Shown: one piece after another, positions 1-59,973 of the stretch | Numbering within the stretch: the stretch's first letter is position 1 | Layout: each line of letters starts with the position of its first letter | From: an uncultured Chloroflexota bacterium | Lineage (GTDB): Bacteria > Chloroflexota > Dehalococcoidia > GIF9 > AB-539-J10 | Reading direction: 5' to 3' | Assembly (NCBI GenBank): GCA_903884455.1 | Contig: CAISEW010000037.1 | Coordinates: forward strand, 80,161-144,160 | DNA length: 64,000 bases | Notes under the pieces: model-generated | What the model saw: the letters and a program-made list of their open reading frames with translations, nothing else | What the model was told of the DNA's origin: nothing | The model's database searches: none | Translations under genes and position numbers: made by a program

Positions 1-603
1 CACCTGGTCAGCCCAGTTTAAGAAATCAGGCAGAATATCCGTGGCCCTGCCTTTCTGACCCATGCTACCATCCTCAGTGACGGGAATAAATTGAACTCCT
101 TTTGGTAAAGGCGAGAGTTTGCTTCGCTTTTTGACGGCCAAAGAAAAAGGATAGAGCTGAGCAGCAGTGCTCGCCCCATGAATTAAAGTTATCTGGTGCT
201 GAGATGAAGCATACTGCATCAAGAAAACGAGCGGAGCAATGCCAATTCCTCCAGCCACCAGCAGCAAGTGTTTTGATTTTGGTTCGATAGTAAACCCCTC
301 ACCTAAGGGGCCAAGAATGTCTAGTCTCTCGCCTGTTTGTCGCTGTGACAGCCAGAGGGTGCCTTTGCCCGCTACCTTGAACAGAAAGGCAATGTGGGAT
401 TGCTTCGCTTCGCTCGCAATGACATTATTGCTCCCAACTTGATGAACGCTGAAAGGGCGACGTAATGTGAAACCTACGCACCGCAATGTGATGAATTGCC
501 CCGGCTGAGCTGAGCAGGCTATATCTGATGCCTCAATCCACATGAGGTGTATGCCGGGCATGACCTCCGCATTAGAAGTTATGGAGCACAAGATTTGTTT
601 CAT
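1..603 (-). CDS. pyrK: dihydroorotate dehydrogenase electron-transfer subunit PyrK (C-terminus beyond window edge)
   Basis: Minus-strand ORF starting ATG at 603 (MKQILCSITSNAEVMPGIHLMWIEASD...PGQFITLRCVG..RRPFSV...GPLGEGF...GGIGIAPL); FAD/NAD-binding PyrK motifs; lies directly downstream of carB in the pyr operon; not in the ORF track because it runs off the window edge. Confidence 0.7.
   Translation of the reverse strand, partial: MKQILCSITSNAEVMPGIHLMWIEASDIACSAQPGQFITLRCVGFTLRRPFSVHQVGSNNVIASEAKQSHIAFLFKVAGKGTLWLSQRQTGERLDILGPLGEGFTIEPKSKHLLLVAGGIGIAPLVFLMQYASSQHQITLIHGASTAAQLYPFSLAVKKRSKLSPLPKGVQFIPVTEDGSMGQKGRATDILPDFLNWADQV
396..423. repeat. in-frame copy of the palindromic repeat core (GTCATTGCGAGCGAAGCGAAGCAATCCC on the coding strand) inside pyrK
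   Basis: Same core as the intergenic repeats at 48250-48368 and 51778-51939; encodes ..VIASEAKQSHIA.. within PyrK. Confidence 0.6.
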
Positions 604-3918: not shown

Positions 3919-5058
3919 CTAGCCTCTCACCATCTCCAGAAATCTCTCAAATAGATACATGTTGTCCAGCGGGCCCGGGGAAGCTTCGGAGTGATATTGA
4001 ATGGACAGGATGGGCAAGTCCTGGTGGCGAAGGCCCTCCACCGTGCCATCGTTTAAGTTGATGTGGCTGACTTCGAGTCCTCCTTTTAGAGTATCGGCGT
4101 CTATAGCATAGCCATGGTTCTGAGCGGTAATATAGACCCTGCTGGTAGCTAAATCACGCACAGGATGGTTGCCGCCGCGGTGCCCAAATTTGAGCTTAAA
4201 GGTCTGGGCTCCCAAGGCTTTGCCTATAAGCTGATGCCCCAGGCATATGCCCATTATGGGCTTCTTACCTATAAGATTTCTTACCGTCTCCGCTATGTCA
4301 CCAAGGAGGGCAGGGTCGCCAGGGCCAGGTGATAAGACAATGCCATCGGGATTTAAGGCCAAGACATCTTTTGCTGAAGTAGTGCACGAGATAGCGGTTG
4401 CCTGGCAGCCCAGTTGACTCAAAATGCGCAGTATATTGTATTTCAAGCCATAGTCGATAACCGCGATATGAGATTGCTTCGCTTCGCCCTCACCTTTATC
4501 CTCTCCCTTCAAGGGAGAGGAAATCAAATTCGCAGTGGCAGGCGCATGGGATTGCCACTCATATGCCTTCTCGGTGCTAACCTGATGAACAAAATCAGTA
4601 ACATCATATCTGGGTAAGGTTTTTAGCTCTTCTGACGCCTCCTCAACTGTCATTTCCGAAGTGACCATTCCCATCATGGCTCCTTGCAAGCGTAAGTGAC
4701 GAGTCAAGGCACGGGTATCTATGCCGCTGATGCCAGGAATGCCGTAGGCCAGCAGAAATTCGTGCAAAGTCCGGGTGCTTTGCCAGTGGCTGGGGCGAGG
4801 GCAATATTCTCGAACAGCTAAACCTCTGACCTGAATTTGCTTGGATTCAAAATCGGATTCGTTGATGCCATAGTTGCCAATCAAAGGATAAGTAGGGACC
4901 AGGATTTGGCCAGCGAAGGACGGGTCGGTGAGCATTTCCTGATAACCGGTCATGCTCGTACTGAATACTACCTCACCATAGGTAGTAGCCTTGGCGCCAA
5001 AGGAATGGCCTTCATAAACCGACCCATCTTCGAGGACTAAAATCGCTTTCCTAGCCAT
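3919..5058 (-). CDS. carA: carbamoyl-phosphate synthase small subunit (glutamine amidotransferase)
   Basis: 379 aa; class-I GATase motif GICLGHQ; immediately upstream of carB; carries an extra ~18-aa segment (SSPLKGEDKGEGEAKQSH) coded by a repeat insertion. Confidence 0.93.
   Translation of the reverse strand: MARKAILVLEDGSVYEGHSFGAKATTYGEVVFSTSMTGYQEMLTDPSFAGQILVPTYPLIGNYGINESDFESKQIQVRGLAVREYCPRPSHWQSTRTLHEFLLAYGIPGISGIDTRALTRHLRLQGAMMGMVTSEMTVEEASEELKTLPRYDVTDFVHQVSTEKAYEWQSHAPATANLISSPLKGEDKGEGEAKQSHIAVIDYGLKYNILRILSQLGCQATAISCTTSAKDVLALNPDGIVLSPGPGDPALLGDIAETVRNLIGKKPIMGICLGHQLIGKALGAQTFKLKFGHRGGNHPVRDLATSRVYITAQNHGYAIDADTLKGGLEVSHINLNDGTVEGLRHQDLPILSIQYHSEASPGPLDNMYLFERFLEMVRG
4467..4530. 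repeat. in-frame palindromic repeat insertion in carA (GCGAAGCGAAGCAATC core plus CTCTCCCTTCAAGGGAGAG palindrome)
   Basis: Shares a ~22-bp core with the pyrK copy and the intergenic MITE-like clusters; encodes ..GEAKQSHIA.. just as the pyrK copy encodes ..SEAKQSHIA.. Confidence 0.55.
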
Positions 5059-19739: not shown

Positions 19740-19800
19740 TTTCCCTGACTTTTTATCGTATTGTCATTCTGAGAGCAGCAAAGAATCTCCAGACTTTTGC

Positions 19801-46250: not shown

Positions 46251-47975
46251 TCATCGCTTCCTATTTAAAAAGGCCAGCAATTTTGCTAGGGGCAAAGTAT
46301 TTAATATATGCTGCGGCTCACACCAGGCCCGCCGTGCCACGCCAACCCCAAATCGCATAAAGCCCAGATGGGCAATGCTATGAGTATCGGTCCCGATGGC
46401 GAGCTTTACCCCCAAGTCTCGGGCACGGAAAGCGTGGATATCCTTTAAATCGAGGCGGTCAGGCATGGCGTTAATTTCCATAATCTTATTATACTTAGCT
46501 GCCGCCTGGAAGACGGCTTCTAAGTCTATAGCCACGGGCTCACGCTCTCCTATGAGGCGGCAAGTAAGGTGGGCAATCATGTCCACATCGGGATTTTCTA
46601 TGGCGTTTATTACCCTCCGGGTCATCCTTTCCTCGCTTTGGTTCATAGCGGAGTGCACAGCAGCAATCACCATATCCAGTTCAGATAGAATTTCGTGTGG
46701 CAGGTCTAAGCTACCATCCGCCCGAATATCCACCTCGATGCCCGTGAGCACATGAATTCCGGTTAAACACTCGTTAAGAGCTTTGATTTCAGCAAGTTGC
46801 TGCCTCAGTCTATCTACATCGAGACCATGAGCAATACCGCGTCCACCGGAATGTTCCGTGACTGCGATATATTGATAGCCCATCTCTTGGGCCGCCAGAG
46901 CCAGTTCCTCGATGGAATCATGCCCATCGCTCCATTCAGTATGCGTATGAAGGTCTCCCTTTATGTCGGGTAACTCCACGAGCTTGGGTATAGCTCCCTG
47001 CTCGGCCTTTTCTATTTCACCCTGAGCCTCTCTGAGTTCTGGCGGAATACACTGAAGCCCCAGCCGGTGGTAGAATTCTTCCTCCGTAGCAAATTTTTCC
47101 AGCTTGTCGGTAGCTACAACAGTTATCCCGTATTCACTCAGCTTTAACCCTTGCTTATGCTCTCTTTCTCTCAGGGAAATGTTATGCTGTTTGCTGCCGG
47201 TAAAATATTGAAGCAGAGAACCGAAGGAGTCATGCTCCACCATTCTCAAGTCAACCTGCAACCCGCCGCTGACAATAACGCTGGCTTTGGTTGACCCCTG
47301 GGCCAGCACCTCTCTTACGTGAGGCAGGGTCACAAAAGCATCTATAACCTCCTTGGGATTATCGGCAGTGCCCATCAGGTCAATATCACCCACCGTTTCC
47401 CGAAAGCGCCGTAAGCTGCCGGCGGCGGTGAGATTTTTCACGCCGGGGATAGAGCGGAGGGCAACTATAATTTCCTCGACGACGGGCAAAGCTTCGCCGA
47501 TGGGGATGCGCTGGTCTTTGCGGCGCAATGCCTGGATTTGGTGGAGGATATTATCAGCGGTCTTTTCGCCAAGGCGGAAGAGCTGAGCCACTCGCCCATC
47601 ATTGATTGCTCGCTCTAATTCATCCGCCGAGCTTATCCCCAATTCGCTGGAAAGCTTGTTAGCTGTCTTGGGACCAATCCCTGGTATGGCCAGGAGATTG
47701 GTTATCCCCTGGGGAAACTCCGCCTTCAGGTTCTCATAATAACCCAGCTTGCCGGTTGTTAGCAGCTCGGTGGTCTTCTTGGCTATGGCCTCACCCACGC
47801 CGGGAATACTCTGCAAGTCCTCCCCTTCCTCAATCATAACCTTTAATTCCCTGGGGTAGTGCTCGATAGCCCGGGCTGCCTTCTGATAGGCACGAATCTT
47901 AAAGACATTTTCCCCTTTAAGCTCCAGAAGGTCGGCAATGTCCTGAAATACCTTAGCCACCTCGCTGTTTTTCAT
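46251..47975 (-). CDS. polX: DNA polymerase/3'-5' exonuclease PolX (Pol-beta-like domain plus PHP domain)
   Basis: 574 aa; N-terminal HhH/Pol-beta domains, C-terminal PHP histidinol-phosphatase motifs (DLHTHTEWSDG). Confidence 0.85.
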   Translation of the reverse strand: MKNSEVAKVFQDIADLLELKGENVFKIRAYQKAARAIEHYPRELKVMIEEGEDLQSIPGVGEAIAKKTTELLTTGKLGYYENLKAEFPQGITNLLAIPGIGPKTANKLSSELGISSADELERAINDGRVAQLFRLGEKTADNILHQIQALRRKDQRIPIGEALPVVEEIIVALRSIPGVKNLTAAGSLRRFRETVGDIDLMGTADNPKEVIDAFVTLPHVREVLAQGSTKASVIVSGGLQVDLRMVEHDSFGSLLQYFTGSKQHNISLREREHKQGLKLSEYGITVVATDKLEKFATEEEFYHRLGLQCIPPELREAQGEIEKAEQGAIPKLVELPDIKGDLHTHTEWSDGHDSIEELALAAQEMGYQYIAVTEHSGGRGIAHGLDVDRLRQQLAEIKALNECLTGIHVLTGIEVDIRADGSLDLPHEILSELDMVIAAVHSAMNQSEERMTRRVINAIENPDVDMIAHLTCRLIGEREPVAIDLEAVFQAAAKYNKIMEINAMPDRLDLKDIHAFRARDLGVKLAIGTDTHSIAHLGFMRFGVGVARRAWCEPQHILNTLPLAKLLAFLNRKR

Positions 47976-48131
47976 GCTTTGCTCGCCTCCTCCCCTCCTT
48001 TATTATACCCCTGTTTCCCAAGCCTGTGATACAAGCTGCTCCAGGTCATTGCCCTGAGTAGTAGGAACCATCGGATACTTCTCCGTTTTGGTCAATGCCG
48101 TTTAAATAATGTAGTTGCCCAATTTCTTTTG

Positions 48132-48159
48132 CCCCACAAAATCTATGGATTTTGTGGGG
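48132..48159. repeat. perfect 12-bp stem palindrome CCCCACAAAATC-tatg-GATTTTGTGGGG
   Basis: Seen directly; lies between the polX start and the repeat cluster. Confidence 0.6.
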
Positions 48160-48249
48160 ACCCTGGGTTTCCAACTAAATCAGAGATTTGGTTGGATGAG
48201 AATTTATTGGGCTCCCTCCTTCTGTTATTGCGCGGTGGGCTCTCCCTTT

Positions 48250-48368
48250 GTCATTGTGAGAAGTCCTCTCCTTTTTGTCATTGCGAGGAGCGAAGCGACG
48301 AAGCAATCCCGGCGGGGCTGTTGTGGGCTGAGATTGCCACGCCCCGACAAGTCGGGGCTCGCAATGAC
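48250..48368. repeat. cluster of MITE-like palindromic repeat units (terminal inverted repeats GTCATTGCGAGG / CCTCGCAATGAC)
   Basis: GTCATTGTGAG at 48250, GTCATTGCGAGGAGCGAAGCGACGAAGCAATCCC at 48276, and inverted CTCGCAATGAC at 48358 with an internal GCCCCGAC-aagt-GTCGGGGC hairpin. It is near-identical in inverted orientation to 51778-51861. Confidence 0.65.
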
Positions 48369-48498
48369 AAAAAATGGAAGGCTTGTGATGACCAGGTGTG
48401 CCTGATAAATCAGGCAACTAGAAGAATGTGGAAGCAGGAAGCTTTTAGAATGTCGAAAGCGAAAGGAAAATCAAAAATGAACAGCCTGCTGATGAAGA

Positions 48499-48532
48499 CG
48501 AGGTCGTTGCCGGCTAGCCGGCAACGACCTCG
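48499..48532. repeat. perfect 16-bp stem / 2-nt loop hairpin CGAGGTCGTTGCCGGC-ta-GCCGGCAACGACCTCG
   Basis: Seen directly; ~160 bp downstream of the minus-strand secreted-protein gene. Confidence 0.6.
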
Positions 48533-48693
48533 GGATTATCCAAGAGCTTGCACTCGCTATGTTCAGGTTCAGCTGCCTGGACCGTAAAACTGGTTACCCC
48601 CAGCATTCACCACTCTGCCAGGGAGGCCATGATTATTGGCAAAATTCTCATCGGCCTCGCTGGGCCCCTGCTCCTACTTCCTGCCATTTTCGT

Positions 48694-49242
48694 CTAATAA
48701 GACGTTGTACCAGACCTGTCCTTAACTATACCAGTGGTACCTGGAGTCTTGGCATTCTTATCTTTGTCGCTGGGTCCCTGCTTCCACTCTGTGCCTGCTT
48801 CGTCTTTGCCATCTGGTGGGTGCCAATTGGGGTGAGTATGGAACTCGCCAACCACTTGCCCACCCACTGGCGGCATAGGGGGAGTAGCGTTGATCCCGCT
48901 ACGATTGCCGGCAGGCCAGCGCCCAACTGTTAGATTGCCATCCGCATCTTCATAGATCCACCCCCCTTCCTCATGCCGGGTAGTAGCATTGTCTGCATTT
49001 GAATCATTCCAGGCCGCACCAATCGCTGCCTTGACAGTGGGGTCATTGGCTATCTGCTCCGCAGTTTTGTTGGTTCCCAGAGGGCCAATCTCGGCAGCGA
49101 CAATGGGACCAATGGCCGTCTGCGCGACAGCAGGTACGGCCAGCACGGCTGGACTCCAGGCAATGCAGGCTATTAGCACGCACAATAAGGCTATGCATGA
49201 TTTCCAACTAGCTTTCACATTTCCTCCTTTTCCCATTGACAT
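48694..49242 (-). CDS. secreted hypothetical protein with HTHP motif
   Basis: 182 aa; N-terminal signal peptide/TM (CIALLCVLIACIAWSPAVLA); C-terminal GEFHTHPNWHPPDG motif, possibly a metal-binding or JAB-like site. Confidence 0.45.
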   Translation of the reverse strand: MSMGKGGNVKASWKSCIALLCVLIACIAWSPAVLAVPAVAQTAIGPIVAAEIGPLGTNKTAEQIANDPTVKAAIGAAWNDSNADNATTRHEEGGWIYEDADGNLTVGRWPAGNRSGINATPPMPPVGGQVVGEFHTHPNWHPPDGKDEAGTEWKQGPSDKDKNAKTPGTTGIVKDRSGTTSY

Positions 49243-49274
49243 TTCAAGCTGTTCTGTATCTGGTTGGGGTTCAC

Positions 49275-49577
49275 TTACTCGGTGTAGTAGATGTTGGTGA
49301 CATTACCGGTCGTCTTGTCCACCCAGACATGAGGCTCACCACCGCGCAGTAGAGGCGAGGAATATGGGAAAGAAATGTGCCAATAAGTTGCTTCCTCCAC
49401 GACCACGGTATCACGGCCATCCAGAGACATTACCCCGTCATCTACCACCTCTTGGGTGGCGATTGTGATTGCTTGCTCACGGCTAATACCAGTTGAGCCA
49501 CAGCCAGCAAAGGTGAGCATCAGGGTTATTACTGCTGTCCCCACCAGCAGCCACACTTTGTATCTCCTTTTTTGCAT
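49275..49577 (-). CDS. small lipoprotein with PepSY-like domain
   Basis: 100 aa; lipobox LTFAGC; PepSY-like pattern (EQAITIATQEV..G..V..V..EE..YWHISF). Confidence 0.45.
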   Translation of the reverse strand: MQKRRYKVWLLVGTAVITLMLTFAGCGSTGISREQAITIATQEVVDDGVMSLDGRDTVVVEEATYWHISFPYSSPLLRGGEPHVWVDKTTGNVTNIYYTE

Positions 49578-49780
49578 TTCCTACCTCCTTCCCTCGTCTT
49601 GGGACCACGAGGGTAATAATTTAGTTTCCTCAATACCTTACTCTAATAAAAGAGCCGACCGTGTCTGGCACGGTCGGCTCTTGGCATAACAAGTGCGACA
49701 CCCCTCTGGGGGTGGTGTATCACCCTTATACCAGTGGGTAAACTTTTCCCTATGACCCAGCACTCTACATTACCCTAATT

Positions 49781-51448
49781 TCACCATATAGCTCTCGTAG
49801 CTTCAAGTACCCCAACAATGGGGTCAACCAGGAGCTCTCTGACCAGGGTCCTCACAAAGTTGTGTTCTGATATGAAGTTTGCGATAGGTGGGCTGGTTCG
49901 GTAATAGAGGTCGACAAGTCGAGAGCCCACGGTGCTTTTCAGCAACACGTCATCTCGGAACGCTCGCAACACATCGAGCTGTTTAGCGGTGGGAGTTCCG
50001 TAGGCTGCGGTGGCGATGAAGCACCCGCCGGATGGGGGTGTTTCTGACTTAATCTGGAATTTGGCTTTGATAACATAGTCTGTGTTCGCGGTGATATTGA
50101 TAGTGGTTGTGGCGGCAGTGGCAGCAGCGATAGTGCTCACGTCGCCAGTCCAGTTGACAAACTCGTAGCCGCTAGCTGGCGTGGCTGTGAGGTTGACCAC
50201 GGTGGGACCAGTGCCGGCAGAAAAGAACAAAGTAGTCGTGGAAATTTGGACGCCGGTTGCAGGGTCCGAGGCAGTGGTGAATGCATTGTGGCCGGGAGTA
50301 GTTACCGAGCCCATGGTAGAGCTGCTGTGTATCGTCAGACAATATTTAAGCGGCGGTAAATACTTCCATATTTGTGCACTGCCGTCGATTTGATAGGAGA
50401 CGCTACCAATATAATACGCGACTGTATACTGAGGTCCGCCGGGCCATGTATGCCCAATGTCATATCCCCCAACGCTGCCCGTCTCCCAAAAAAGTACCAC
50501 CCGGGTCCCGTTCGTTCCTTCGCTGTAAACAGAGCGGGTAATTGTGCTTCCGTCTATGTCATCATCAGTCCATACGGTTGTCACTGGGCCGGTGGTTGTA
50601 TTGTTGACCTCACGCCAGTAAGTGATAGTGTCAGGGGTAGAATAACCAAAGTTATTGCACATGTGAACAGGGCGGCCCTCGGGGGTGCATTCCCCTGCCT
50701 CTGGAATGATTGGGTCTGTTGGGCTCCGTATCGCAATCACGGTTGTTGGAGCCGGAGTCGTAGTGGCGTTCCCCAGATTTAAGTCCATTGGTCCAGTAAC
50801 TGGTCCGATGCCTGCAAACACGCCCGCCAGGTTAAAGGCCAGGTAATATGAAAACATGGCGCCGTTGGACATTCCCGTGGCATAGATTCGGCTTGTATTA
50901 ATCGCATAGTTAGCTTCAAACCAGTCAACTATATCCGCAGTAAATCCCACATCATCAACACCTGCGCAATATTGCAAGGGAGCAATTGGTGTTCCATTGA
51001 TGGCACCACAATTCCACATGATGTTAGAACCAGTCAAGCCTGGTAAAGTCCAATTGTTGGCAGTCATGCAGTCACTCCACCTCGAATCATGTTCATCTAA
51101 TGCTGTGGCATCAGGATACACGGCAATAAACCCTTCTGCATCGGCGAGTGCATCAAACTTGGTTAGATCGATTTGTCCCGGTCCGCTGCTGCCCAGGCCG
51201 TGAAACGAAAACAACAGGGGAACCGGCGTGGCGTTGTTTGTGACGTTGCAACTGGACGGGATATAGTATTCAAATGTGCGGTTAAAAACCCAACTGCTAT
51301 TTACAGTAGAGGTCTCCGTCATCCAACCCGTGTGAAGCCCGTGTGTGTACTCAGGTGGGGGCGCGGCGACAACAATAGAACTCCCCACAGGTAACACCAT
51401 CGCCATGATTACCAAAAGAGCAATAATGCAATATTTCTTTAAAGCCAT
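49781..51448 (-). CDS. secreted alpha/beta-hydrolase esterase (PHB-depolymerase/LpqC-like) with conserved Cys-containing C-terminal domain
   Basis: 555 aa; signal peptide; FSFHGLGSSG and nucleophile motif GMSNGAM; Thr/Ala-rich linker; C-terminal GGCFIATAAYGTP...LRAFRDDVL module. Confidence 0.6.
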   Translation of the reverse strand: MALKKYCIIALLVIMAMVLPVGSSIVVAAPPPEYTHGLHTGWMTETSTVNSSWVFNRTFEYYIPSSCNVTNNATPVPLLFSFHGLGSSGPGQIDLTKFDALADAEGFIAVYPDATALDEHDSRWSDCMTANNWTLPGLTGSNIMWNCGAINGTPIAPLQYCAGVDDVGFTADIVDWFEANYAINTSRIYATGMSNGAMFSYYLAFNLAGVFAGIGPVTGPMDLNLGNATTTPAPTTVIAIRSPTDPIIPEAGECTPEGRPVHMCNNFGYSTPDTITYWREVNNTTTGPVTTVWTDDDIDGSTITRSVYSEGTNGTRVVLFWETGSVGGYDIGHTWPGGPQYTVAYYIGSVSYQIDGSAQIWKYLPPLKYCLTIHSSSTMGSVTTPGHNAFTTASDPATGVQISTTTLFFSAGTGPTVVNLTATPASGYEFVNWTGDVSTIAAATAATTTINITANTDYVIKAKFQIKSETPPSGGCFIATAAYGTPTAKQLDVLRAFRDDVLLKSTVGSRLVDLYYRTSPPIANFISEHNFVRTLVRELLVDPIVGVLEATRAIW

Positions 51449-51777
51449 TTTTTCCTCCTCCCTTTTTAGATGCTTTTTACATAAAAAGGCATAATAAAAC
51501 TCATAGAACTATATTTACTCTATAACCTTCACCTCCTTTATGGTACGTATCTACTAAATGCCAACAACTATTGCTTACAAACTTATACGCACAGGTTTTT
51601 AAAAGCCTGGCTGTTACGGTACCCTGGAAATTGCTGCAGATGGTATTTTGTCATTAGAAGAAAGACGTCAGGAAACTTTTCCCCGGATTACAAACCTTTA
51701 AAAGTTAATTATAGCAGATTTCTGCTTCGAATGTCAACTGCTTGTACTCGTTCATATGATTAGTGACACCCTTTTTT

Positions 51778-51939
51778 GTCGTTGCGAGCCCCGACCTGTC
51801 GGGGCGTGGCAATCTCATGCCCCACCGAGATTGCTTTGTCGCCTTCGGCTCCTCGCAATGACAGAAGGGGGATTGCGGAGCCTGTTCCGAAGCGTAAGCG
51901 AGGAATCTCGTTCCTCGCAATGACAGGGAGGTCATTGTC
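51778..51939. repeat. second cluster of the MITE-like repeat family (inverted relative to 48250-48368) plus partial units
   Basis: The reverse complement of 51778-51861 aligns with 48276-48368 with a few mismatches; further CCTCGCAATGAC and GTCATTGTC units run to 51939. Confidence 0.65.
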
Positions 51940-52113
51940 CAACGTTGCAAATTTATGAAGTGTCACCCATCTATCTGAACTAGATCACTGCTAACGCTGC
52001 ATGGTTGCTGCTTGAACGGATTGTCTAAATAGTCGTTTATGGTACACTAATGCCATTAGAAGGCAGTTTGGGAACCATGGATTAATAAAAAGGCGTAATC
52101 CGTCGCAACTGGA

Positions 52114-52737
52114 ATGCCAAAGTACATCAAAAACAGGATATTATGGGGCTATGACCTTAACCTTGTGGCGGTGGTCAGCATATCCACGCTGGTATTAGTC
52201 CTGGAACGTTATCATCATTTAAACATCGATTTTCCCCGGGCAACGGAGCTCATTTATTACCTGCTGGTCCCGCTGGCGGCAAGTTTTTTGCTTTTTCGGG
52301 ATAAGCCCTGGGATTATGGCATCCGCATCGGCCGCTGGAAATCGGCGATAATTCTAGCCGTAGTCTGCCTTGCTGCCATGGCGCTGATTCTCTACAGGGT
52401 CGGTAAAATGCCTGAGTTTCGCTCTTACTACCACGAGTCTCACATAGACTGGTCCGAGCTGCTGCTCGACGCCGCACTATACATGTTTGCCTGGGAATTT
52501 CTGTTCCGCGGATATATGCTGTTCGGTCTGGAAAAATCGATAGGCAAAAGCGCCATCTTTGTGCAGGCCATTCCCTTCGTGCTGCTTCATCTGGGCAAGC
52601 CCTTTTTGGAGACGCTGGCCTGCATCCCCGGCGGCTTTATTTTTGGTTACGTGGCATACCGAACGAGGTCGTTTTTGCCCTGTTTTGTTATACACTTCGG
52701 CATCTACGTAATGATGTTCTTTTTTACCAATTCCTAG
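52114..52737 (+). CDS. CPBP-family (CAAX protease / Abi) intramembrane metalloprotease
   Basis: 207 aa polytopic membrane protein; motifs WEFLFRGYM and FVLLHLGK (EExxxR / FxxxH). Confidence 0.7.
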   Translation: MPKYIKNRILWGYDLNLVAVVSISTLVLVLERYHHLNIDFPRATELIYYLLVPLAASFLLFRDKPWDYGIRIGRWKSAIILAVVCLAAMALILYRVGKMPEFRSYYHESHIDWSELLLDAALYMFAWEFLFRGYMLFGLEKSIGKSAIFVQAIPFVLLHLGKPFLETLACIPGGFIFGYVAYRTRSFLPCFVIHFGIYVMMFFFTNS

Positions 52738-56514: not shown

Positions 56515-56730
56515 ATGAAGGCAGTTGAATCGAGAACTGAAATTTACTTGATGGCGCTACAATCGCTTTCCAAGGCAGAGAAGGAGGCGGTCATTGTCCG
56601 TTTGTTGGAAGATCCTCAGCTCAGAGAAGATATTCTCGATTTAGCTCTTATCCAGCAGCGGCAAGGAGAGCCATCCAGGCCTTTTACAGAATACCTAGCT
56701 GACAGAAAAGAGCGGGCTCGTAAGGCGTGA
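56515..56730 (+). CDS. putative type II antitoxin (partner of the RelE/ParE toxin)
   Basis: 71 aa; 4-bp overlap (GTGA) with the downstream toxin gene; AAGGGAGG RBS. Confidence 0.55.
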   Translation: MKAVESRTEIYLMALQSLSKAEKEAVIVRLLEDPQLREDILDLALIQQRQGEPSRPFTEYLADRKERARKA

Positions 56731-56981
56731 AGTACCAGGTCCGAATCATCCCTTCCGCTGAGAAGGAGATGGATAAGCTTCCAGCACTAATTCATAGACA
56801 CATCAGTAGAAAAATCCTCTTGTTGGAAGACAATCCCAGGCCCAGAGGCGCAAAGAAGCTTAGCGGTCGTGAAGAATATCGTCTCAGAGCGGGCGATTAT
56901 AGGGTCTTATATACTATCGATGACAAGGGACATGTGGTTACAGTCTTTGCTGTAGGCCATCGACGGGAAGTATATCGATAA
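56727..56981 (+). CDS. RelE/ParE family type II toxin
   Basis: 84 aa; YRLRAGDYRVLYTIDDKGHVVTVFAVGHRREVYR is the classic RelE/ParE C-terminal signature. Confidence 0.8.
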   Translation: MKYQVRIIPSAEKEMDKLPALIHRHISRKILLLEDNPRPRGAKKLSGREEYRLRAGDYRVLYTIDDKGHVVTVFAVGHRREVYR

Positions 56982-57009: not shown

Positions 57010-57837
57010 ATGCCCGAACTCCCTGAAGTAGAGACAATTAAGAACGAGCTTTCGCCCTGGGTTGTGGGGCAAAGCTTCACTCAAGTTACTATCTTTGATG
57101 CCGAGCTGGTGTGTGGTAGTTCTGCTGAAGAAGTCCGTCGCGGGTTAATCGAGCAGAAGGTAGAAAGCCTGGGACGCCGGGGAAAGTATCTCATCTTCCA
57201 CCTGTCAAATGGCAGGTCACTGGTTATACATCTCAGGATGACCGGCAGCTTGCTGTTGAATCCCAAGGAAGTTGAGCGCTATGCCCGGGCGGTTTTTCAC
57301 TTCTCCAGTGGGCACCGCCTTGTTTTCAGCGACCGGCGCCGGCTGGGGGTAATGTGGCTGGTAGACGATGCCAGTACTGTGGTCGGCAAGCTGGGCCCCG
57401 AGCCGCTGGAGGAAAGCTTTACCCCGGGTATTCTGGGGCAAAGATTAAGCCGGCATCACATCCCCGTAAAAGCCGCGCTTCTCGACCAATGTATCGTCGC
57501 GGGAATCGGCAATATGTATGCCGATGAAGCCCTCTTTGCCGCTCGGATTCACCCTCTGAGAAAAACAGACGCCCTGTCGCCTGCAGAAGTGCAGACCCTA
57601 CATCACTGCGTTCGTAGGGTTCTTCAGGCAGCCATCGGCAGCAAAGGCGCCAGCGTGGATACCTACGTCCGCCCCGAGGGCGAGCTGGGCACAGCTCATT
57701 TCGATTTTAAGGTTGCTCATAAGGGAGGCGAGCCCTGCCCCATTTGCGGCAGCACCATCGAGCGGCTCCCCGTGCAGAACCGCGGCACCTACTTCTGCCC
57801 TAGATGTCAACCTTTTGATTCCGGGCCTCTGATATAA
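57010..57837 (+). CDS. fpg: formamidopyrimidine-DNA glycosylase
   Basis: 275 aa; N-terminal MPELPEVE catalytic motif, H2TH region, C-terminal zinc finger CPICG..CPRCQ. Confidence 0.9.
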   Translation: MPELPEVETIKNELSPWVVGQSFTQVTIFDAELVCGSSAEEVRRGLIEQKVESLGRRGKYLIFHLSNGRSLVIHLRMTGSLLLNPKEVERYARAVFHFSSGHRLVFSDRRRLGVMWLVDDASTVVGKLGPEPLEESFTPGILGQRLSRHHIPVKAALLDQCIVAGIGNMYADEALFAARIHPLRKTDALSPAEVQTLHHCVRRVLQAAIGSKGASVDTYVRPEGELGTAHFDFKVAHKGGEPCPICGSTIERLPVQNRGTYFCPRCQPFDSGPLI

Positions 57838-57877
57838 AAGCTGGCAGCGACTGGATTTGCACCAGCGACTAAAGGCT
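57780..57877. repeat. copy A of a ~98-bp imperfect direct repeat (last 58 bp of fpg plus 40 bp downstream)
   Basis: Aligns with 59876-59973 at ~90% identity; contains a T-arm-like GCTGG-ATTTGCA-CCAGC motif. Confidence 0.7.
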
Positions 57878-58072: not shown

Positions 58073-59791
58073 CTACTCATTCATGGCGTACTCGCCGTTC
58101 AAAACGGAAACATACTGCTCCCATACACTGTTATATTGCTCGGAATTTGGCACTGCCTTAATAAGCATAATCTTGACACAATAATCTCGTTGTGCATCCT
58201 TGGAACTATGGTTGCCGTAGATTTGCATGGCAAATTGAGCAAAGTCACGCACCATGAAATCAAACATCTGGTTCAGAATGGCTGAATCGATTCCGCTGAT
58301 ACTGGCCTGCTCGAGGATGAGCTGGCCGTACACAACAATGGAGAACATCTCGCCCACAGGTAGAGACCACGAGGGGTCCCTATCCTGGGCCTCGTCCGGG
58401 CCCGCCTTTTCCAGCATCTCCTTGAAAATATCTATTTGCTTCATGAAGGCAGCCACATTGGGCAGGCCCTTATTGGCCTCGAAGACAGGCTTATAATCGT
58501 GGAACTGTATTTTCCCCAGTCCCCTGGTGGGGCCCTGATTGAAGAGGAACAGGTCGTCTTTTTCCGAAAGGTCCGGAGCTACTGGTGGATACTCGGCGGG
58601 GTTGAAGAAGTAGTTTCGCATGAACTTGCGGATGAGCTGGATGTTCACGTGGACCGTTCCCTCGAGCTTGGACGGGCCCATGATATCGGCGGTTGCCATG
58701 TGAAAGTAGGTGTCCTTTTCAAATCCCTTGGCTGCGATCACTTCCCAGAGCAGGCTGACCACCTCTTCGGCCTGCAGGGTCACCTTCATCTTGCTCGTGG
58801 GGTTGTAGAGCAGGTAGCGGCGGTCGTTCTGGCTGGAATTCCTAAAATAGTCAGTGGCGCGGCGCTGGTAGAGCTTCATGACCACCAGGCGCAGCCAGGC
58901 ATCCATGAAGTTCTTCCGCACGTGGGGCATGTCCGTGACCCGTATGCCGTAGAGGATGCGGTTGGATGCATGGGTGATGGCCTCGTAGAAGCAGTGTTCA
59001 GCAATCCCGATGGATCCGGGACCGATGTTGAATTTGCCGATGTTCACGGTGTTGAGCGCACAGTCCCAGGCATAGGAGCCCCGGGAGAGGATGTCATCCT
59101 CTGTGATGGGATAGTCGTGCAGAGCGAAGTTGGACACGTATTCCTGGTGGGAGACGACGTTCTTCTTGAGCTCGTAGGCCTTGTGGCGGAAGTTGGTGAC
59201 GAAGAAAGTGTAGTCGTCAGTGCCGTCCTTGATTTTCCCCAGAGTGGACACCATTTCCGCTTCATTGCCGTTGCCGATGTAATATTTTTCCCCGTTCGCC
59301 ACCCATGTACCGTCAGGCATTGGCGTGAGTGAGGTTTCCGTCGAATAAATGTCTGCGCCGTGGGCCCTCTCAGAAAGGCCGTACGCAAAAATCGCCCCCT
59401 TCTTGAGGAGCCTGGCTGCTTTCCTTTTCGCCTTTTCATTCTGACTCATCCAGATGGGGCCCAGGCCCAGGATGCTCACCTGGAAGCAGTACCAGTAGCC
59501 CAGGCCGTAGAAAGCCAGGAGTTCGGCATATTCACTGTTGCGGGCCGTGTCCCAGCGATAGTCGGGATCTCCGCCGGCATATTTCTTGGGCGTCAGCAGC
59601 TTGGCAAAGATCTGCTCCTTGCCGATGAATTCGACAAACTCACTGTACCAGACCTTCTTGTCGTAATCATCGAGAACCCTGGCCTTGCCCATCTTTTCGA
59701 AGAAGGCAATAGTCTTGTTCATGATGGCTCTTGATCCCTTGTCGGCCACAAGGCTTTTATATTTTTTGGGCTGTAGTAGATAATTCATCAT
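58073..59791 (-). CDS. acyl-CoA dehydrogenase family protein (long, ~570-aa type)
   Basis: 572 aa; ACAD-like catalytic segment YGLSERAHGADIYS...NGEKYYIGNG; GC visibly higher than surrounding DNA; bracketed by the fpg-end direct repeats. Confidence 0.65.
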   Translation of the reverse strand: MMNYLLQPKKYKSLVADKGSRAIMNKTIAFFEKMGKARVLDDYDKKVWYSEFVEFIGKEQIFAKLLTPKKYAGGDPDYRWDTARNSEYAELLAFYGLGYWYCFQVSILGLGPIWMSQNEKAKRKAARLLKKGAIFAYGLSERAHGADIYSTETSLTPMPDGTWVANGEKYYIGNGNEAEMVSTLGKIKDGTDDYTFFVTNFRHKAYELKKNVVSHQEYVSNFALHDYPITEDDILSRGSYAWDCALNTVNIGKFNIGPGSIGIAEHCFYEAITHASNRILYGIRVTDMPHVRKNFMDAWLRLVVMKLYQRRATDYFRNSSQNDRRYLLYNPTSKMKVTLQAEEVVSLLWEVIAAKGFEKDTYFHMATADIMGPSKLEGTVHVNIQLIRKFMRNYFFNPAEYPPVAPDLSEKDDLFLFNQGPTRGLGKIQFHDYKPVFEANKGLPNVAAFMKQIDIFKEMLEKAGPDEAQDRDPSWSLPVGEMFSIVVYGQLILEQASISGIDSAILNQMFDFMVRDFAQFAMQIYGNHSSKDAQRDYCVKIMLIKAVPNSEQYNSVWEQYVSVLNGEYAMNE

Positions 59792-59875
59792 TACTCCCCT
59801 CCTGCTCGGTGGTTCAAGAACTTTACTAAAATTAATCTATGCCAGTCAAGAATATTCTGCTACATAGACACAGGG

Positions 59876-59973
59876 CCGTGGCACCTGCTTCTGCCCCAGA
59901 TGCCAACCCTCTGGTTCCGGGCCTCTGATATAAAAGCTGGCAGCGGCTGGATTCGAACCAGCGACTAAGGGCT
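59876..59973. repeat. copy B of the fpg 3'-end direct repeat (includes a degenerate duplicate of the Fpg C-terminal codons ..GTCFCPRCQPSGSGPLI*)
   Basis: Aligns with 57780-57877; here the internal motif is GCTGG-ATTCGAA-CCAGC (tRNA T-arm-like on the reverse strand). Confidence 0.7.

Follow-up and report, generated by a model that had tools for sequence, protein, structure and literature searches.

The window, the whole 64-kb stretch of a Dehalococcoidia MAG that was analysed, contains between polX and a CPBP/Rce1-like protease gene a segment that differs among relatives (Table 1). Three co-oriented minus-strand genes occupy it, as an earlier sequence-only reading had proposed, and non-coding repeat clusters lie on either side of them. 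The edges, placed by blastn at about 48029-48031 and 52004-52032, abut on one side the promoter-like site of polX, whose TATAAT region is conserved in all relatives compared.

Table 1. Features of the CPBP-polX region and further repeat copies in the window
Feature	Position	Strand	Basis or detail
Variable slot, polX promoter to CPBP upstream region	48030-52012	.	blastn against relatives
polX (flank)	46251-47975	-	promoter-like site 48002-48030
CPBP/Rce1-like protease gene (flank)	52114-52737	+	PF02517, E = 2.9e-13
Predicted secreted alpha/beta-hydrolase, PHB-depolymerase/feruloyl-esterase family, 555 aa	49781-51448	-	profile and structure matches
Esterase sigma-70-type promoter, TTGACA, 18 nt, TG-TATAAT	51708-51737	-	12/12 consensus positions
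Esterase intrinsic terminator (predicted)	49650-49682	-	14-bp stem, then UUUUAUUA; T-run
Lipoprotein, weakly PepSY-like, 100 aa	49275-49577	-	PF03413, lipobox FAGC
DUF4329-type JAMM/MPN-like lipoprotein (predicted), 182 aa	48694-49242	-	invariant residues, fold match
Terminator-like hairpin of PepSY-like/DUF4329 module	48499-48532	-	fold and conservation
GTAG-tagged REP hairpin GTAGTTGCCCAATTTATTGGGC, split by nested insertion	48111-48212	.	-28.8 kcal/mol
Two degenerate REP heads, TGTTATTGCGCG and TGTCATTGTGAG	48223-48260	.	motif match
Left REP dimer	48276-48369	.	units 48276-48310 and 48330-48369
Second GTAG-type hairpin GCCTGATAAATCAGGCAACTAG	48400-48422	.	family in L003, L005, L026, L178
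245-bp MITE, TG...CA ends, TIR-L TGTACTCGTTCATATGATTAGTGACAC, TIR-R GTGTCACCCATCTATCTGAACTAGATCA	51743-51987	+	alignment A1
REP units in MITE	51777-51925	.	dimer 51777-51816 and 51827-51863; composite third unit 51869-51925
Further REP unit copy	396-424	+	sequence match
Partial REP unit copy	4463-4492		
AGAAT-stem variant of REP unit	19763-19787		

The largest gene encodes an esterase that matches NF050058 (105.8 bits, under the cut-off of 150) and the PDB feruloyl esterase 9j07 (E = 6e-15), relationships that suggest its probable substrate class. The expected nucleophile motif GMSNG is present at residue 192, with GHTWPG at 332. The Thr/Ala-rich stretch previously described as a linker exists, but lies inside a PF18998 (Flg_new_2, InlB B-repeat-like) domain at residues 416-467. 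The module with CFIATAAYG (residue 476), earlier suspected of being a sorting or anchoring domain, recurs as a C-terminal domain and has an NCBIfam entry, NF041770, CFI-box-CTERM (90.4 bits against a cut-off of 40; residues 476-542 of 555). As in other NF041770 proteins the match is full-length and at the extreme C-terminus, with no difference seen; this domain is highly conserved among the esterase orthologues, and the middle of the protein varies. The promoter is nearly invariant in 10 relatives (alignment A1). The terminator (-26.7 kcal/mol, z = -5.9) is conserved 3' of the gene in relatives. Since the gene ends in a strong predicted intrinsic terminator of its own, the three genes do not make up a single operon, and the esterase gene would form a monocistronic module running from a consensus promoter to that terminator.

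The other two genes would form a second module, with a hairpin of its own at the end. In the 100-aa protein the expected lipobox is present, and the PepSY resemblance is weak (PF03413, E = 1.4e-3, 19.3 bits, under the cut-off of 24); the family matches of the esterase, PepSY-like and DUF4329-type proteins are all under curated cut-offs. Immediately downstream of the PepSY-like gene comes, in every case, the DUF4329-like gene, whose product has 182 residues as an open reading frame and 174 in the public gene call. This third protein carries the motif HTHPN at residue 135, and E91/E92, H135-x-H137 and S158-x-x-D161 are invariant in 25 of 25 sequences (alignment A2). Its AF2 model is of moderate confidence (pLDDT 67), and the best PDB fold match is the JAB1/MPN protein AF2198 (probability 0.99, E = 7e-3); on this model it is a predicted JAMM/MPN-like (DUF4329) lipoprotein, and the module may comprise a peptidase plus a regulator. 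Signal peptides and lipoboxes of the trio were judged by eye: the esterase shows a KK n-region, a hydrophobic core and VAA/PP, and the third protein a lipobox LIAC with Cys26 invariant in 25 homologues, features from which export and lipid anchoring of the slot-encoded proteins are predicted. The hairpin that follows, noted earlier as having a 16-bp stem, is indeed a perfect palindrome (17+17 nt) but folds with a 15-bp stem (-32.3 kcal/mol, z = -5.6). L018, L178 and L177 retain it 3' of the pair, with compensatory changes and changes to G-U, and hairpins of this kind probably act as terminators. In L177 the pair and its hairpin also lie after gidB, without the esterase.

Comparison of 54 related loci by synteny, with blastn boundaries, bore out the proposed variability of the block. 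Among relatives whose polX is 85-97% identical, the slot is either empty or contains the esterase by itself, all three genes or unrelated ones. The slot is empty, with 20-50 bp instead, in five loci (L008, L019, L022, L040, L052); the esterase is the sole cargo in seven (L001, L003, L012, L014, L015, L016, L051); and three genomes have the full trio (this window, L018 and L178). Elsewhere the cargo is a molybdopterin oxidoreductase (L002, L009, L021), a CoA-transferase (L005) or two other secreted proteins (L006). These states are scattered across the polX tree, and L001, the closest relative of the window, has no repeats and no cargo but the esterase. As in known genomic hotspots, the boundaries are fixed beside conserved genes, and close relatives show unrelated alternative cargo and empty states. 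The slot differs from such hotspots in that its cargo modules comprise one or two genes and bring their own signals, and in what accompanies them: no integrase or transposase gene in or adjoining the block was found within the window, nor any tRNA, att-like boundary or phage remnant at the block.

The opposite orientation of the repeat clusters was confirmed, the arms 48322-48377 and 51769-51824 being 89% complementary over 56 nt. The repeat of about 90 bp previously described is real, but is an inverted dimer of a palindromic unit of 30-40 nt (35-40 nt in the copies concerned) and not a single element. With at most two mismatches allowed, the window has 12 copies of the head motif TGTCATTGCGAG, where 4.6 would be expected (none of 100 shuffles reached 12), and seven of the 12 copies lie in the two clusters. 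As the sequence-only reading allowed, repeats of this kind turn up at other places in the window and far outside it: units 94-97% identical are found on Methylosinus, Methylocystis and Calothrix plasmids, the Methylosinus dimer lying between convergent genes. Units occur singly, in dimers or in tandem arrays, with no genes between them. The outer stem covaries (GC/GC 262, CC/GG 45, CT/AG 18; mixed combinations rare), and its variant ATTCC/GGAAT presumably corresponds to the core of Neisseria dRS3. The inner segment is hypervariable, yet forms a perfect hairpin of at least 5 bp in 53% of distinct segments as against 4.7% of shuffles.

By its features the unit fits the CGTC/TGTC-tagged REP superfamily, and it occurs across phyla. 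Neisseria dRS3 and Rickettsia RPE-4/RPE-6 are members of that superfamily (Di Nocera et al. 2013, BMC Genomics 14:522), and TGTC is a tag variant named in the same paper (PMC3733652). Shared features are the unpaired terminal tag (TGTC here; the Methylosinus copy has CGTC), A-T at the start of the stem, a short tail left unpaired, the lack of an adjoining transposase gene, and an intergenic arrangement mostly as inverted dimers with a conserved spacer. In contrast to the published stem of 8-9 bp and loop of 4-5 nt, the outer stem here has 5 bp and encloses an internal loop that is conserved (GAG / CGTG or TTCG), with a hairpin or mini-hairpin of hypervariable sequence innermost; tandem arrays and nesting in a MITE are further differences, as are the hosts, Chloroflexota and Cyanobacteria being absent from the paper's CGTC list. 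As in REPIN/RAYT systems and GTAG-tagged REPs, inverted doublets form one long hairpin, and a GTAG-tagged hairpin family is also present in the CPBP-polX intergenic region, but the dimer units themselves lack the GTAG tag. A weak test, covering 1.84 Mb of sequence, found neither RAYT nor any other HUH transposase.

On the polX side these elements would constitute an old nest: a TGTC/CGTC REP dimer, fragments and two GTAG hairpins. The dimer, its TGTC heads facing outward across a 19-nt spacer, was folded as had been suggested and forms a single structure (-47.8 kcal/mol, z = -5.0); it stands at the equivalent place in L005, L007, L014 and L051. The first GTAG hairpin is intact in L026, L030 and L051; here, and also in L005, it is in the nested state. 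The nested insertion, 75 bp at 48126-48200, consists of two hairpins, one of them the palindrome at 48132-48159, which has the perfect 12-nt arms attributed to it, and is flanked by AATTT (48121-48125 and 48201-48205). The left cluster occurs upstream of polX irrespective of cargo, whether esterase alone or CoA-transferase.

The right cluster has another history. The label "MITE-like" was apt in that it lies in a true MITE, but not for the repeat of about 90 bp, which is the REP dimer within. The element has imperfect TIRs and is flanked by a 5-bp target duplication, CTGCT (51738-51742 and 51988-51992), and in alignment A1 it is a clean insertion relative to nine relatives; the right cluster is missing from all nine esterase-bearing relatives compared. 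A near-identical copy exists elsewhere in L246, a copy in L104 has the same termini and a rearranged interior, and the exact 27-nt terminus is found in more than 120 metagenome contigs. Among 46 distinct insertions of the family, 19 have a perfect 5-bp duplication and 28 one with at most one mismatch; the shortest has 68 bp and the longest 457 bp, and REP units make up their interiors.

Full-length copies with the same ends encode a 344-aa HTH+rve transposase; in NCBIfam this enzyme matches transpos_IS481 best, along the entire model, with 208 bits (cut-off 224). No IS481-like transposase was found in the 64-kb window or in the Dehalococcoidia loci, and the MITE was probably mobilised in trans by such an enzyme. 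The insertion point of both MITE and parent lies exactly 5 bp in front of sigma-70-type promoters: at 20 of 41 independent sites at least five of the six TTGACA positions abut the duplication exactly, with none at neighbouring offsets, and at 26 of 41 at least five of six TATAAT positions follow 16-19 nt further on, as against 2.3% of random positions. Like IS481-derived MITEs, the element has imperfect TIRs, TG...CA termini, no open reading frame, a 5-bp duplication and many copies at unrelated sites, and the parent of about 1.1 kb has the same ends and a single HTH+rve transposase. Unlike them, its interior is made of REP dimers and not of a deletion remnant of the parent. Bordetella IS481 targets NCTAGN. 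Two differences from the IS481 family are the fixed position 5 bp upstream of TTGACA-17-TATAAT promoters and the transposase score just under the NCBI cut-off.

The inverted arms that bracket the genes, and the absence of the block from some relatives, led to the proposal that a composite or mobilisable cassette, with the clusters as its ends, carries the three exoprotein genes as one unit. This is now very improbable. The trio occurs without such repeats in L018 and L178; repeats occur upstream of polX without the trio in eight relatives (L003, L004, L005, L007, L010, L013, L014, L051) and the left cluster with other cargo; the right cluster was inserted separately, has a duplication of its own and lies inside the outer boundary of the block; the outer repeat ends have no target duplication, and neither transposase nor integrase gene is present; and the esterase and the two-gene pair occur separately. 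Recent acquisition of the block as a foreign genomic island would agree with its patchy presence and with an esterase 55-64% identical between genomes whose flanking genes share 85-97%. It is nonetheless highly unlikely, given that G+C content and skew equal those of the flanks, that no tRNA, integrase or att-like boundary is present, that the N- and C-terminal parts of the esterase and its promoter are conserved across the clade, and that all third-gene homologues found are from close relatives, of similar length and 56-92% identity. That the units are attC-like sites and the slot an integron-like cassette array can hardly be credited, despite a conserved frame around a hypervariable imperfect palindrome and the variable gene content: there is no integrase gene nearby, slot genes have their own promoters and terminators, and the units have no genes between them. 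The attC R''/R' consensus is RYYYAAC/GTTRRRY, which the frame TGTCATTGCGAG ... GCAATC misfits on comparison by eye.

A role in the host, with mobility secondary, is unlikely but deserves more weight. The clusters could stabilise RNA 3' ends or terminate transcription, insulate divergent or tandem transcription units from one another, or serve as binding sites for proteins, and the left cluster would then belong to the regulation of polX or of the upstream gene. The units fold strongly and hold their position upstream of polX in the eight relatives, the Methylosinus dimer is placed between convergent genes, and REPs are reported mostly downstream of genes, acting as RNA elements (PMC3733652). 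Yet close relatives (L001, L015, L018, L178) lack repeats at the site and are otherwise unchanged, the inner hairpins are wholly different at orthologous positions, and the right cluster came by transposition. The fixed position of the left cluster could still reflect a selected function at the polX promoter or the upstream transcript end rather than passive residence.

Since the clusters have separate histories and the trio occurs without repeats, the region is a variable slot and not a composite cassette. Most probably two conserved core genes flank an intergenic slot that is hypervariable and in which independent modules stand side by side: the monocistronic esterase gene, the two-gene lipoprotein module and the non-coding repeats. 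The two REP dimers would then face each other by coincidence, not as ends of a transposable unit, the one on the CPBP side having arrived within a MITE inserted exactly 5 bp upstream of the esterase -35 box. That MITE would be a non-autonomous form of the IS481-like insertion sequence with REP units as its interior, and its placement agrees with the target preference of this element family in general.

The interval between the CPBP protease gene and polX is a slot whose gene content differs between relatives. In the window it holds three minus-strand genes, present as the sequence-only reading described them, for a 555-aa esterase, a 100-aa PepSY-like protein and a 182-aa DUF4329 protein. A polX-anchored scan with one genome per species yielded 54 loci, nearly all of them from MAGs of Dehalococcoidia/Chloroflexota, whose polX shares 72-97% identity with that of the window (comparison loci from relatives, metagenomes and plasmids carry L-numbers). 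Tblastn and blastn searches against the loci show just 20-50 bp in place of the slot in L008, L019, L022, L040 and L052, in which the gap is empty. It holds the esterase alone in L001, L003, L012, L014, L015, L016 and L051, the full trio in the window, L018 and L178, a molybdopterin oxidoreductase in L002, L009 and L021, a family-III CoA-transferase in L005, and the esterase with two further secreted proteins in L006. These states are scattered over the polX tree, on which L001, with the esterase alone, is nearest to the window and L018, which holds the trio, has a genome with an empty slot as its sister. The PepSY-like/DUF4329 pair also occurs 3' of gidB in L177, where it lacks the esterase, and G+C content is flat over the whole block. 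The earlier proposal of a hotspot with exoprotein cargo is therefore supported in a more specific form, as a slot of differing content. Comparing presence and absence of the block bears out a variable hotspot, but the trio is not one unit; it consists of two separable modules. Nor is it one operon, since the esterase gene has a strong predicted terminator of its own (-26.7 kcal/mol, followed by a U-run). Tandem duplicates of flanking genes, CPBP in L016 and L052 and an HGSNAT-like gene in L051, are further evidence of rearrangement in the neighbourhood. The esterase orthologue of L012 is split over several frames, as a pseudogene or through an assembly error.

The sequence-only reading had also likened the trio and its bracketing repeats to a composite or mobilisable cassette. 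This was rejected: cargo and repeats occur independently, joint movement of the cargo with both repeats is not seen, and there is no duplication outside the repeats. An integron cassette was likewise discarded, there being no integrase in the neighbourhood and the frame of the repeats, TGTCATTGCGAG...GCAATC, differing from the attC consensus. The left and right repeat clusters have separate histories. The left cluster, a dimer of repetitive extragenic palindrome (REP) units with fragments near polX, lies 5' of polX in L003, L004, L005, L007, L010, L013, L014 and L051, independent of cargo, and is missing in L001, L015, L018 and L178; at orthologous positions its REPs differ in their inner hairpins. 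In what looked like a cassette, a slot of variable gene content, old REPs and a single recent MITE insertion lie side by side by chance. With an adjacent hairpin, the 12-bp palindrome beside polX forms a 75-bp insertion with AATTT on both sides (a 5-bp duplication) in the loop of a GTAG-tagged hairpin. That hairpin is unsplit in L026, L030 and L051, and L005 has a nested state like that of the window. The ends of the 75-bp insertion are unlike those of the MITE.

The right cluster lies in a 245-bp element with imperfect ~27-nt terminal inverted repeats (TIRs) and no coding capacity. The element is missing in nine esterase-bearing relatives, which have the uninterrupted site TGTCAA-CTGCT-AACG, and CTGCT is duplicated on either side of it in the window. 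Both of its ends are 100% identical in L104, where interior and context are different, and L246 holds a 246-bp near-copy of it at another site. Over 120 JGI metagenome contigs contain the exact 27-nt right terminus; it often lies ~97 nt from the contig end, the position expected if assemblies break at the repeat. Complete elements number 46 distinct ones of 68-457 bp, in which the 5-bp duplication is perfect in 19 and has at most one mismatch in 28; the forms of 68-89 bp are hardly more than two TIRs, and those of 190-460 bp hold at least one REP dimer between the TIRs. The description as MITE-like was thus borne out for the right cluster by TIRs, 5-bp duplication, empty sites and many copies.

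In other contigs the terminus is followed by a 344-aa open reading frame with HTH and rve domains (PF13683, PF00665 and HTH families), and L231 and L284 hold full copies of ~1.09 kb in which IRL and IRR, as in the MITE, surround this transposase gene. Its best NCBIfam match, over the full model, is NF033577 (transpos_IS481), at 208.1 bits, under the cut-off of 224. Members of the IS481 family have a single-ORF DDE (rve) transposase with an N-terminal HTH and, in the ISfinder description, are ~1-1.3 kb long with a short target duplication and ends of the TG...CA type. The parent element resembles them in its length (~1.09 kb in L231), 5-bp duplication and TG...CA ends, and its transposase probably mobilises the MITE.

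The insertions show a target preference. Immediately 5' of the left duplication, G-T-C-A-A occupies the five positions in 65-87% of cases, reading TTGAC on the other strand. At 20 of the 41 sites with independent flanks, at least five of the six bases of TTGACA exactly abut the duplication (none at neighbouring offsets), and at 26 of the 41 at least five of six of TATAAT follow 16-19 nt further downstream, as against 2.3% of random positions. The elements are oriented with the TIR-L (IRR) end towards TTGACA-17-TATAAT, 5 bp upstream of it (loci L179-L298 and the window), and in two full-length IS copies TTGACAA adjoins the IRR end. In the window the target was the esterase promoter, which was left intact. 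Because no two of the spacers separating the hexamers agree, and because relatives have the promoter without the element, promoters are the targets rather than parts of the element. Searchable full text yielded no description of promoter targeting by IS481 elements, which is not proof of novelty.

Every copy of the ~90-bp repeat consists of two units in inverted orientation, each composed of TGTC, ATTGC, GAG, a variable segment, CGTG or CGAA, GCAAT and CTC. In the window, plausible genes are free of most units, though the two leftmost (see the table) fall within putative ORFs. A loose regular-expression census returned many false positives, and stricter patterns were used instead. The outer stem covaries, with ATTGC/GCAAT in 262 units, ATTCC/GGAAT in 45 and ATTCT/AGAAT in 18; combinations of these are seldom found. 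Between the frame motifs lies a hypervariable inner segment, mostly of 7-21 nt, which forms a perfect hairpin in 53% of 172 distinct segments as compared with 4.7% of shuffles. A reading of these mini-hairpins as GNA triloops of single-stranded DNA led to no claim, loops of the GAA/GCA/GTA-complementary kind being common but not exclusive. The spacer of the dimers is conserved in the window, L005, L007, L014, L051, L082, L089 and Methylosinus; no target duplication surrounds the dimers themselves, and their flanks extend the palindrome (T-run, A-run). Units 94-97% identical are carried by plasmids of Methylosinus, Methylocystis and Calothrix, and in Methylosinus two convergent genes enclose the copy, which is a dimer. 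This identity of a 35-nt non-coding unit spans phyla, Alphaproteobacteria and Cyanobacteria included. Exact matches to the pattern also occur in over 120 putatively viral contigs of IMG/VR, some with tandem arrays, which in L075 and L095 run head-to-tail with a period of 37-45 nt, every unit bearing its own, different mini-hairpin.

Rfam found tRNA alone in the window at gathering thresholds and no REP family, and at permissive E-values gave at most chance-level matches in both intergenic regions; a full-text literature search for the repeat sequences returned nothing relevant. A close counterpart is the CGTC-tagged REP superfamily of Di Nocera et al. 2013 (PMC3733652), whose tag is often TGTC (also CCTC), whose stem starts with A-T and has 8-9 bp with a loop of 4-5 nt and a short unpaired 3' tail of consensus CCA, and whose members, chiefly intergenic inverted dimers in many copies per genome with no dedicated transposase, are listed in five phyla, Chloroflexi not included. 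The present units share the unpaired tag (TGTC in all full window units, CGTC in the Methylosinus copy), and the opening complementary A-T of the stem (ATTGC...GCAAT and its covarying variants); inverted dimers occur among them, and no transposase adjoins them. They differ in architecture, the outer stem having 5 bp and leading to an internal loop and then to an inner segment whose length varies. The 3' tail reads CTC(A) or CCC in window copies, CCA in the Methylosinus one. Since tag and A-T agree, as apparently do the dimers, but stem and loop lengths do not, the units are filed as a variant member of the superfamily. A second family, of GTAG-tagged hairpins (GTAGTTGCCCAATTTATTGGGC and GTAGTTGCCTGATTTATCAGGC), is also there. 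REPIN/RAYT systems pair GTAG-tagged REPs with an HUH (RAYT) gene; here no HUH/RAYT transposase was found in 1.84 Mb of fetched sequence by phmmer with approximate IS608 TnpA and E. coli RayT queries, a weak test.

The REP unit lacks stop codons in five of its six frames, which accounts for spurious ORFs of 60-150 aa in the clusters, with peptides such as VIARSEATKQS, CHCEERSDEAI and LLRRFAPRND; such translations can inflate ORF calls, for instance the one at 48129-48587. In L178 an 87-aa gene call between the DUF4329 gene and polX is probably non-coding.

As for the cargo, the esterase has a Sec-type N-terminus by eye (n- and h-regions, VAA/PP) and a catalytic region resembling extracellular type-1 PHB depolymerases and feruloyl esterases. 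All its profile scores are below cut-off (in brackets): NF050058 105.8 (150), TIGR01840 41.1 (107.85) and PF10503 22.1 (23). It matches the feruloyl esterase 9j07 in PDB at E = 6e-15 and contains GHTWPG and GMSNG, the latter, from residue 192 and with Ser194, of the nucleophile-elbow form G-x-S-x-G. The Thr/Ala-rich stretch noted previously is there, but lies within a Flg_new_2 (InlB B-repeat-like) domain rather than a linker. The C-terminus (residues 476-542 of 555) is a full-length NF041770 CFI-box-CTERM match at 90.4 bits against a cut-off of 40, so that this module is an already catalogued domain. The CFI-box is nearly invariant in 10 esterase orthologues, the middle of the protein being variable. 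A search with the CFI-box only matched short fragments, all under 145 aa and uninformative on domain partners, and a full-text literature search for 'CFI-box-CTERM' returned nothing relevant. The esterase transcript would have a leader of ~260 nt from -10 box to start codon, in which no Rfam family matches.

In the second module, the 100-aa protein has a lipobox (FAGC, by eye), no NCBIfam match, and a score of 19.3 bits against PF03413 (PepSY), under the cut-off of 24. The 182-aa protein, also with a lipobox by eye (LIAC), is matched by 27 equally long homologues, the majority with precomputed PF14220 (DUF4329), and itself scores 24.2 against that model's cut-off of 28.6. The metal site of JAMM enzymes has the form E...H-x-H...S-x-x-D on an MPN fold; invariant in 25 aligned homologues are E91/E92, H135-x-H137, S158-x-x-D161 and the lipobox Cys, with a distance from HxH to S longer than the canonical JAMM spacing. 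The top PDB match of its AlphaFold2 model (pLDDT 67) is AF2198, an archaeal JAB1/MPN protein (probability 0.99, E = 7e-3), followed by CSN5 and Rpn11 homologues. The protein is tentatively read as a JAMM-like metalloenzyme anchored in the membrane, with the small lipoprotein as its putative partner. The 17+17-nt palindrome 3' of the DUF4329 gene recurs there in L018, L178 and L177 with G-U and compensatory changes, and is best read as a putative terminator of the module.

Elsewhere in the window, a gene pair (71 aa and 84 aa) between polA and fpg is likely a type II toxin-antitoxin system, given the ParE-toxin Pfam match of its second gene in the public gene table, and a 103-nt direct repeat (87% identical) flanks an acyl-CoA-dehydrogenase-like gene.

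Features of the window and of comparison loci, with positions in the respective sequence
Feature	Sequence	Position	Strand
REP unit	window	396-424	
REP unit, partial	window	4463-4492	
REP unit	window	19763-19787	
polX	window	46251-47975	-
CPBP-polX slot	window	~48030-52012	
GTAG hairpin	window	48111-48212	
75-bp insertion	window	48126-48200	
Spurious ORF	window	48129-48587	+
12-bp palindrome	window	48132-48159	
Hairpin in insertion	window	48171-48195	
Spurious ORF	window	48175-48417	-
REP dimer, left cluster	window	48276-48369	
Palindrome 3' of DUF4329 gene	window	48499-48532	
DUF4329 gene	window	48694-49242	-
PepSY-like gene	window	49275-49577	-
Esterase terminator	window	49650-49682	-
Esterase gene	window	49781-51448	-
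Esterase leader	window	51449-51707	-
Spurious ORF	window	51705-51966	-
Esterase promoter, perfect TTGACA-18-TG-TATAAT	window	51737-51708	-
MITE with target duplications	window	51738-51992	
MITE	window	51743-51987	
CPBP protease gene	window	52114-52737	+
Toxin-antitoxin pair	window	56515-56981	
103-nt direct repeat	window	57775-57877, 59871-59973	
Acyl-CoA-dehydrogenase-like gene	window	58073-59791	
Split esterase orthologue	L012	8120-9677	
CPBP tandem duplicates	L016	880-2295	
CPBP tandem duplicates	L052	490-1904	
HGSNAT-like tandem duplicates	L051	5775-7471	
REP tandem arrays	L075	2669-2856, 5029-5103, 11849-12770	
REP match to 35-nt unit, Methylosinus trichosporium OB3b pOB3b1	L175	4001-4083	
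REP match to 35-nt unit, Calothrix PCC 6303 plasmid	L176	4003-4115	

For the block itself the outcome is mainly clarification, every component being of a known kind: a gene hotspot, CGTC/GTAG REPs, an IS481-type MITE, a CFI-box protein and a JAMM-like DUF4329 protein. Dehalococcoidia are added to the hosts of CGTC/TGTC-type REPs. The by-products, promoter targeting and REP-filled MITEs, could outweigh the original finding, and promoter-proximal targeting together with the REP-filled interior might be the new parts for a specialist. We propose tentatively, rating it a little short of evenly balanced, that an IS481-like IS/MITE family targets the upstream border of sigma-70-type promoters and has an interior made up of CGTC-type REP dimers; the REP units would be a variant shared across phyla, in which the frame is constant and the hairpin varies freely. 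If true, REPs described as transposase-less would have a transposition vehicle of known chemistry, and the carriage of dimers by MITEs would bear on how such REPs spread. Promoter homing, if true, would mean that many promoters have a structured element filled with REPs at one set position, and the family would be a natural system for studies of promoter-directed transposition. Such promoter-proximal insertions could supply regulatory variation in uncultured Chloroflexota.
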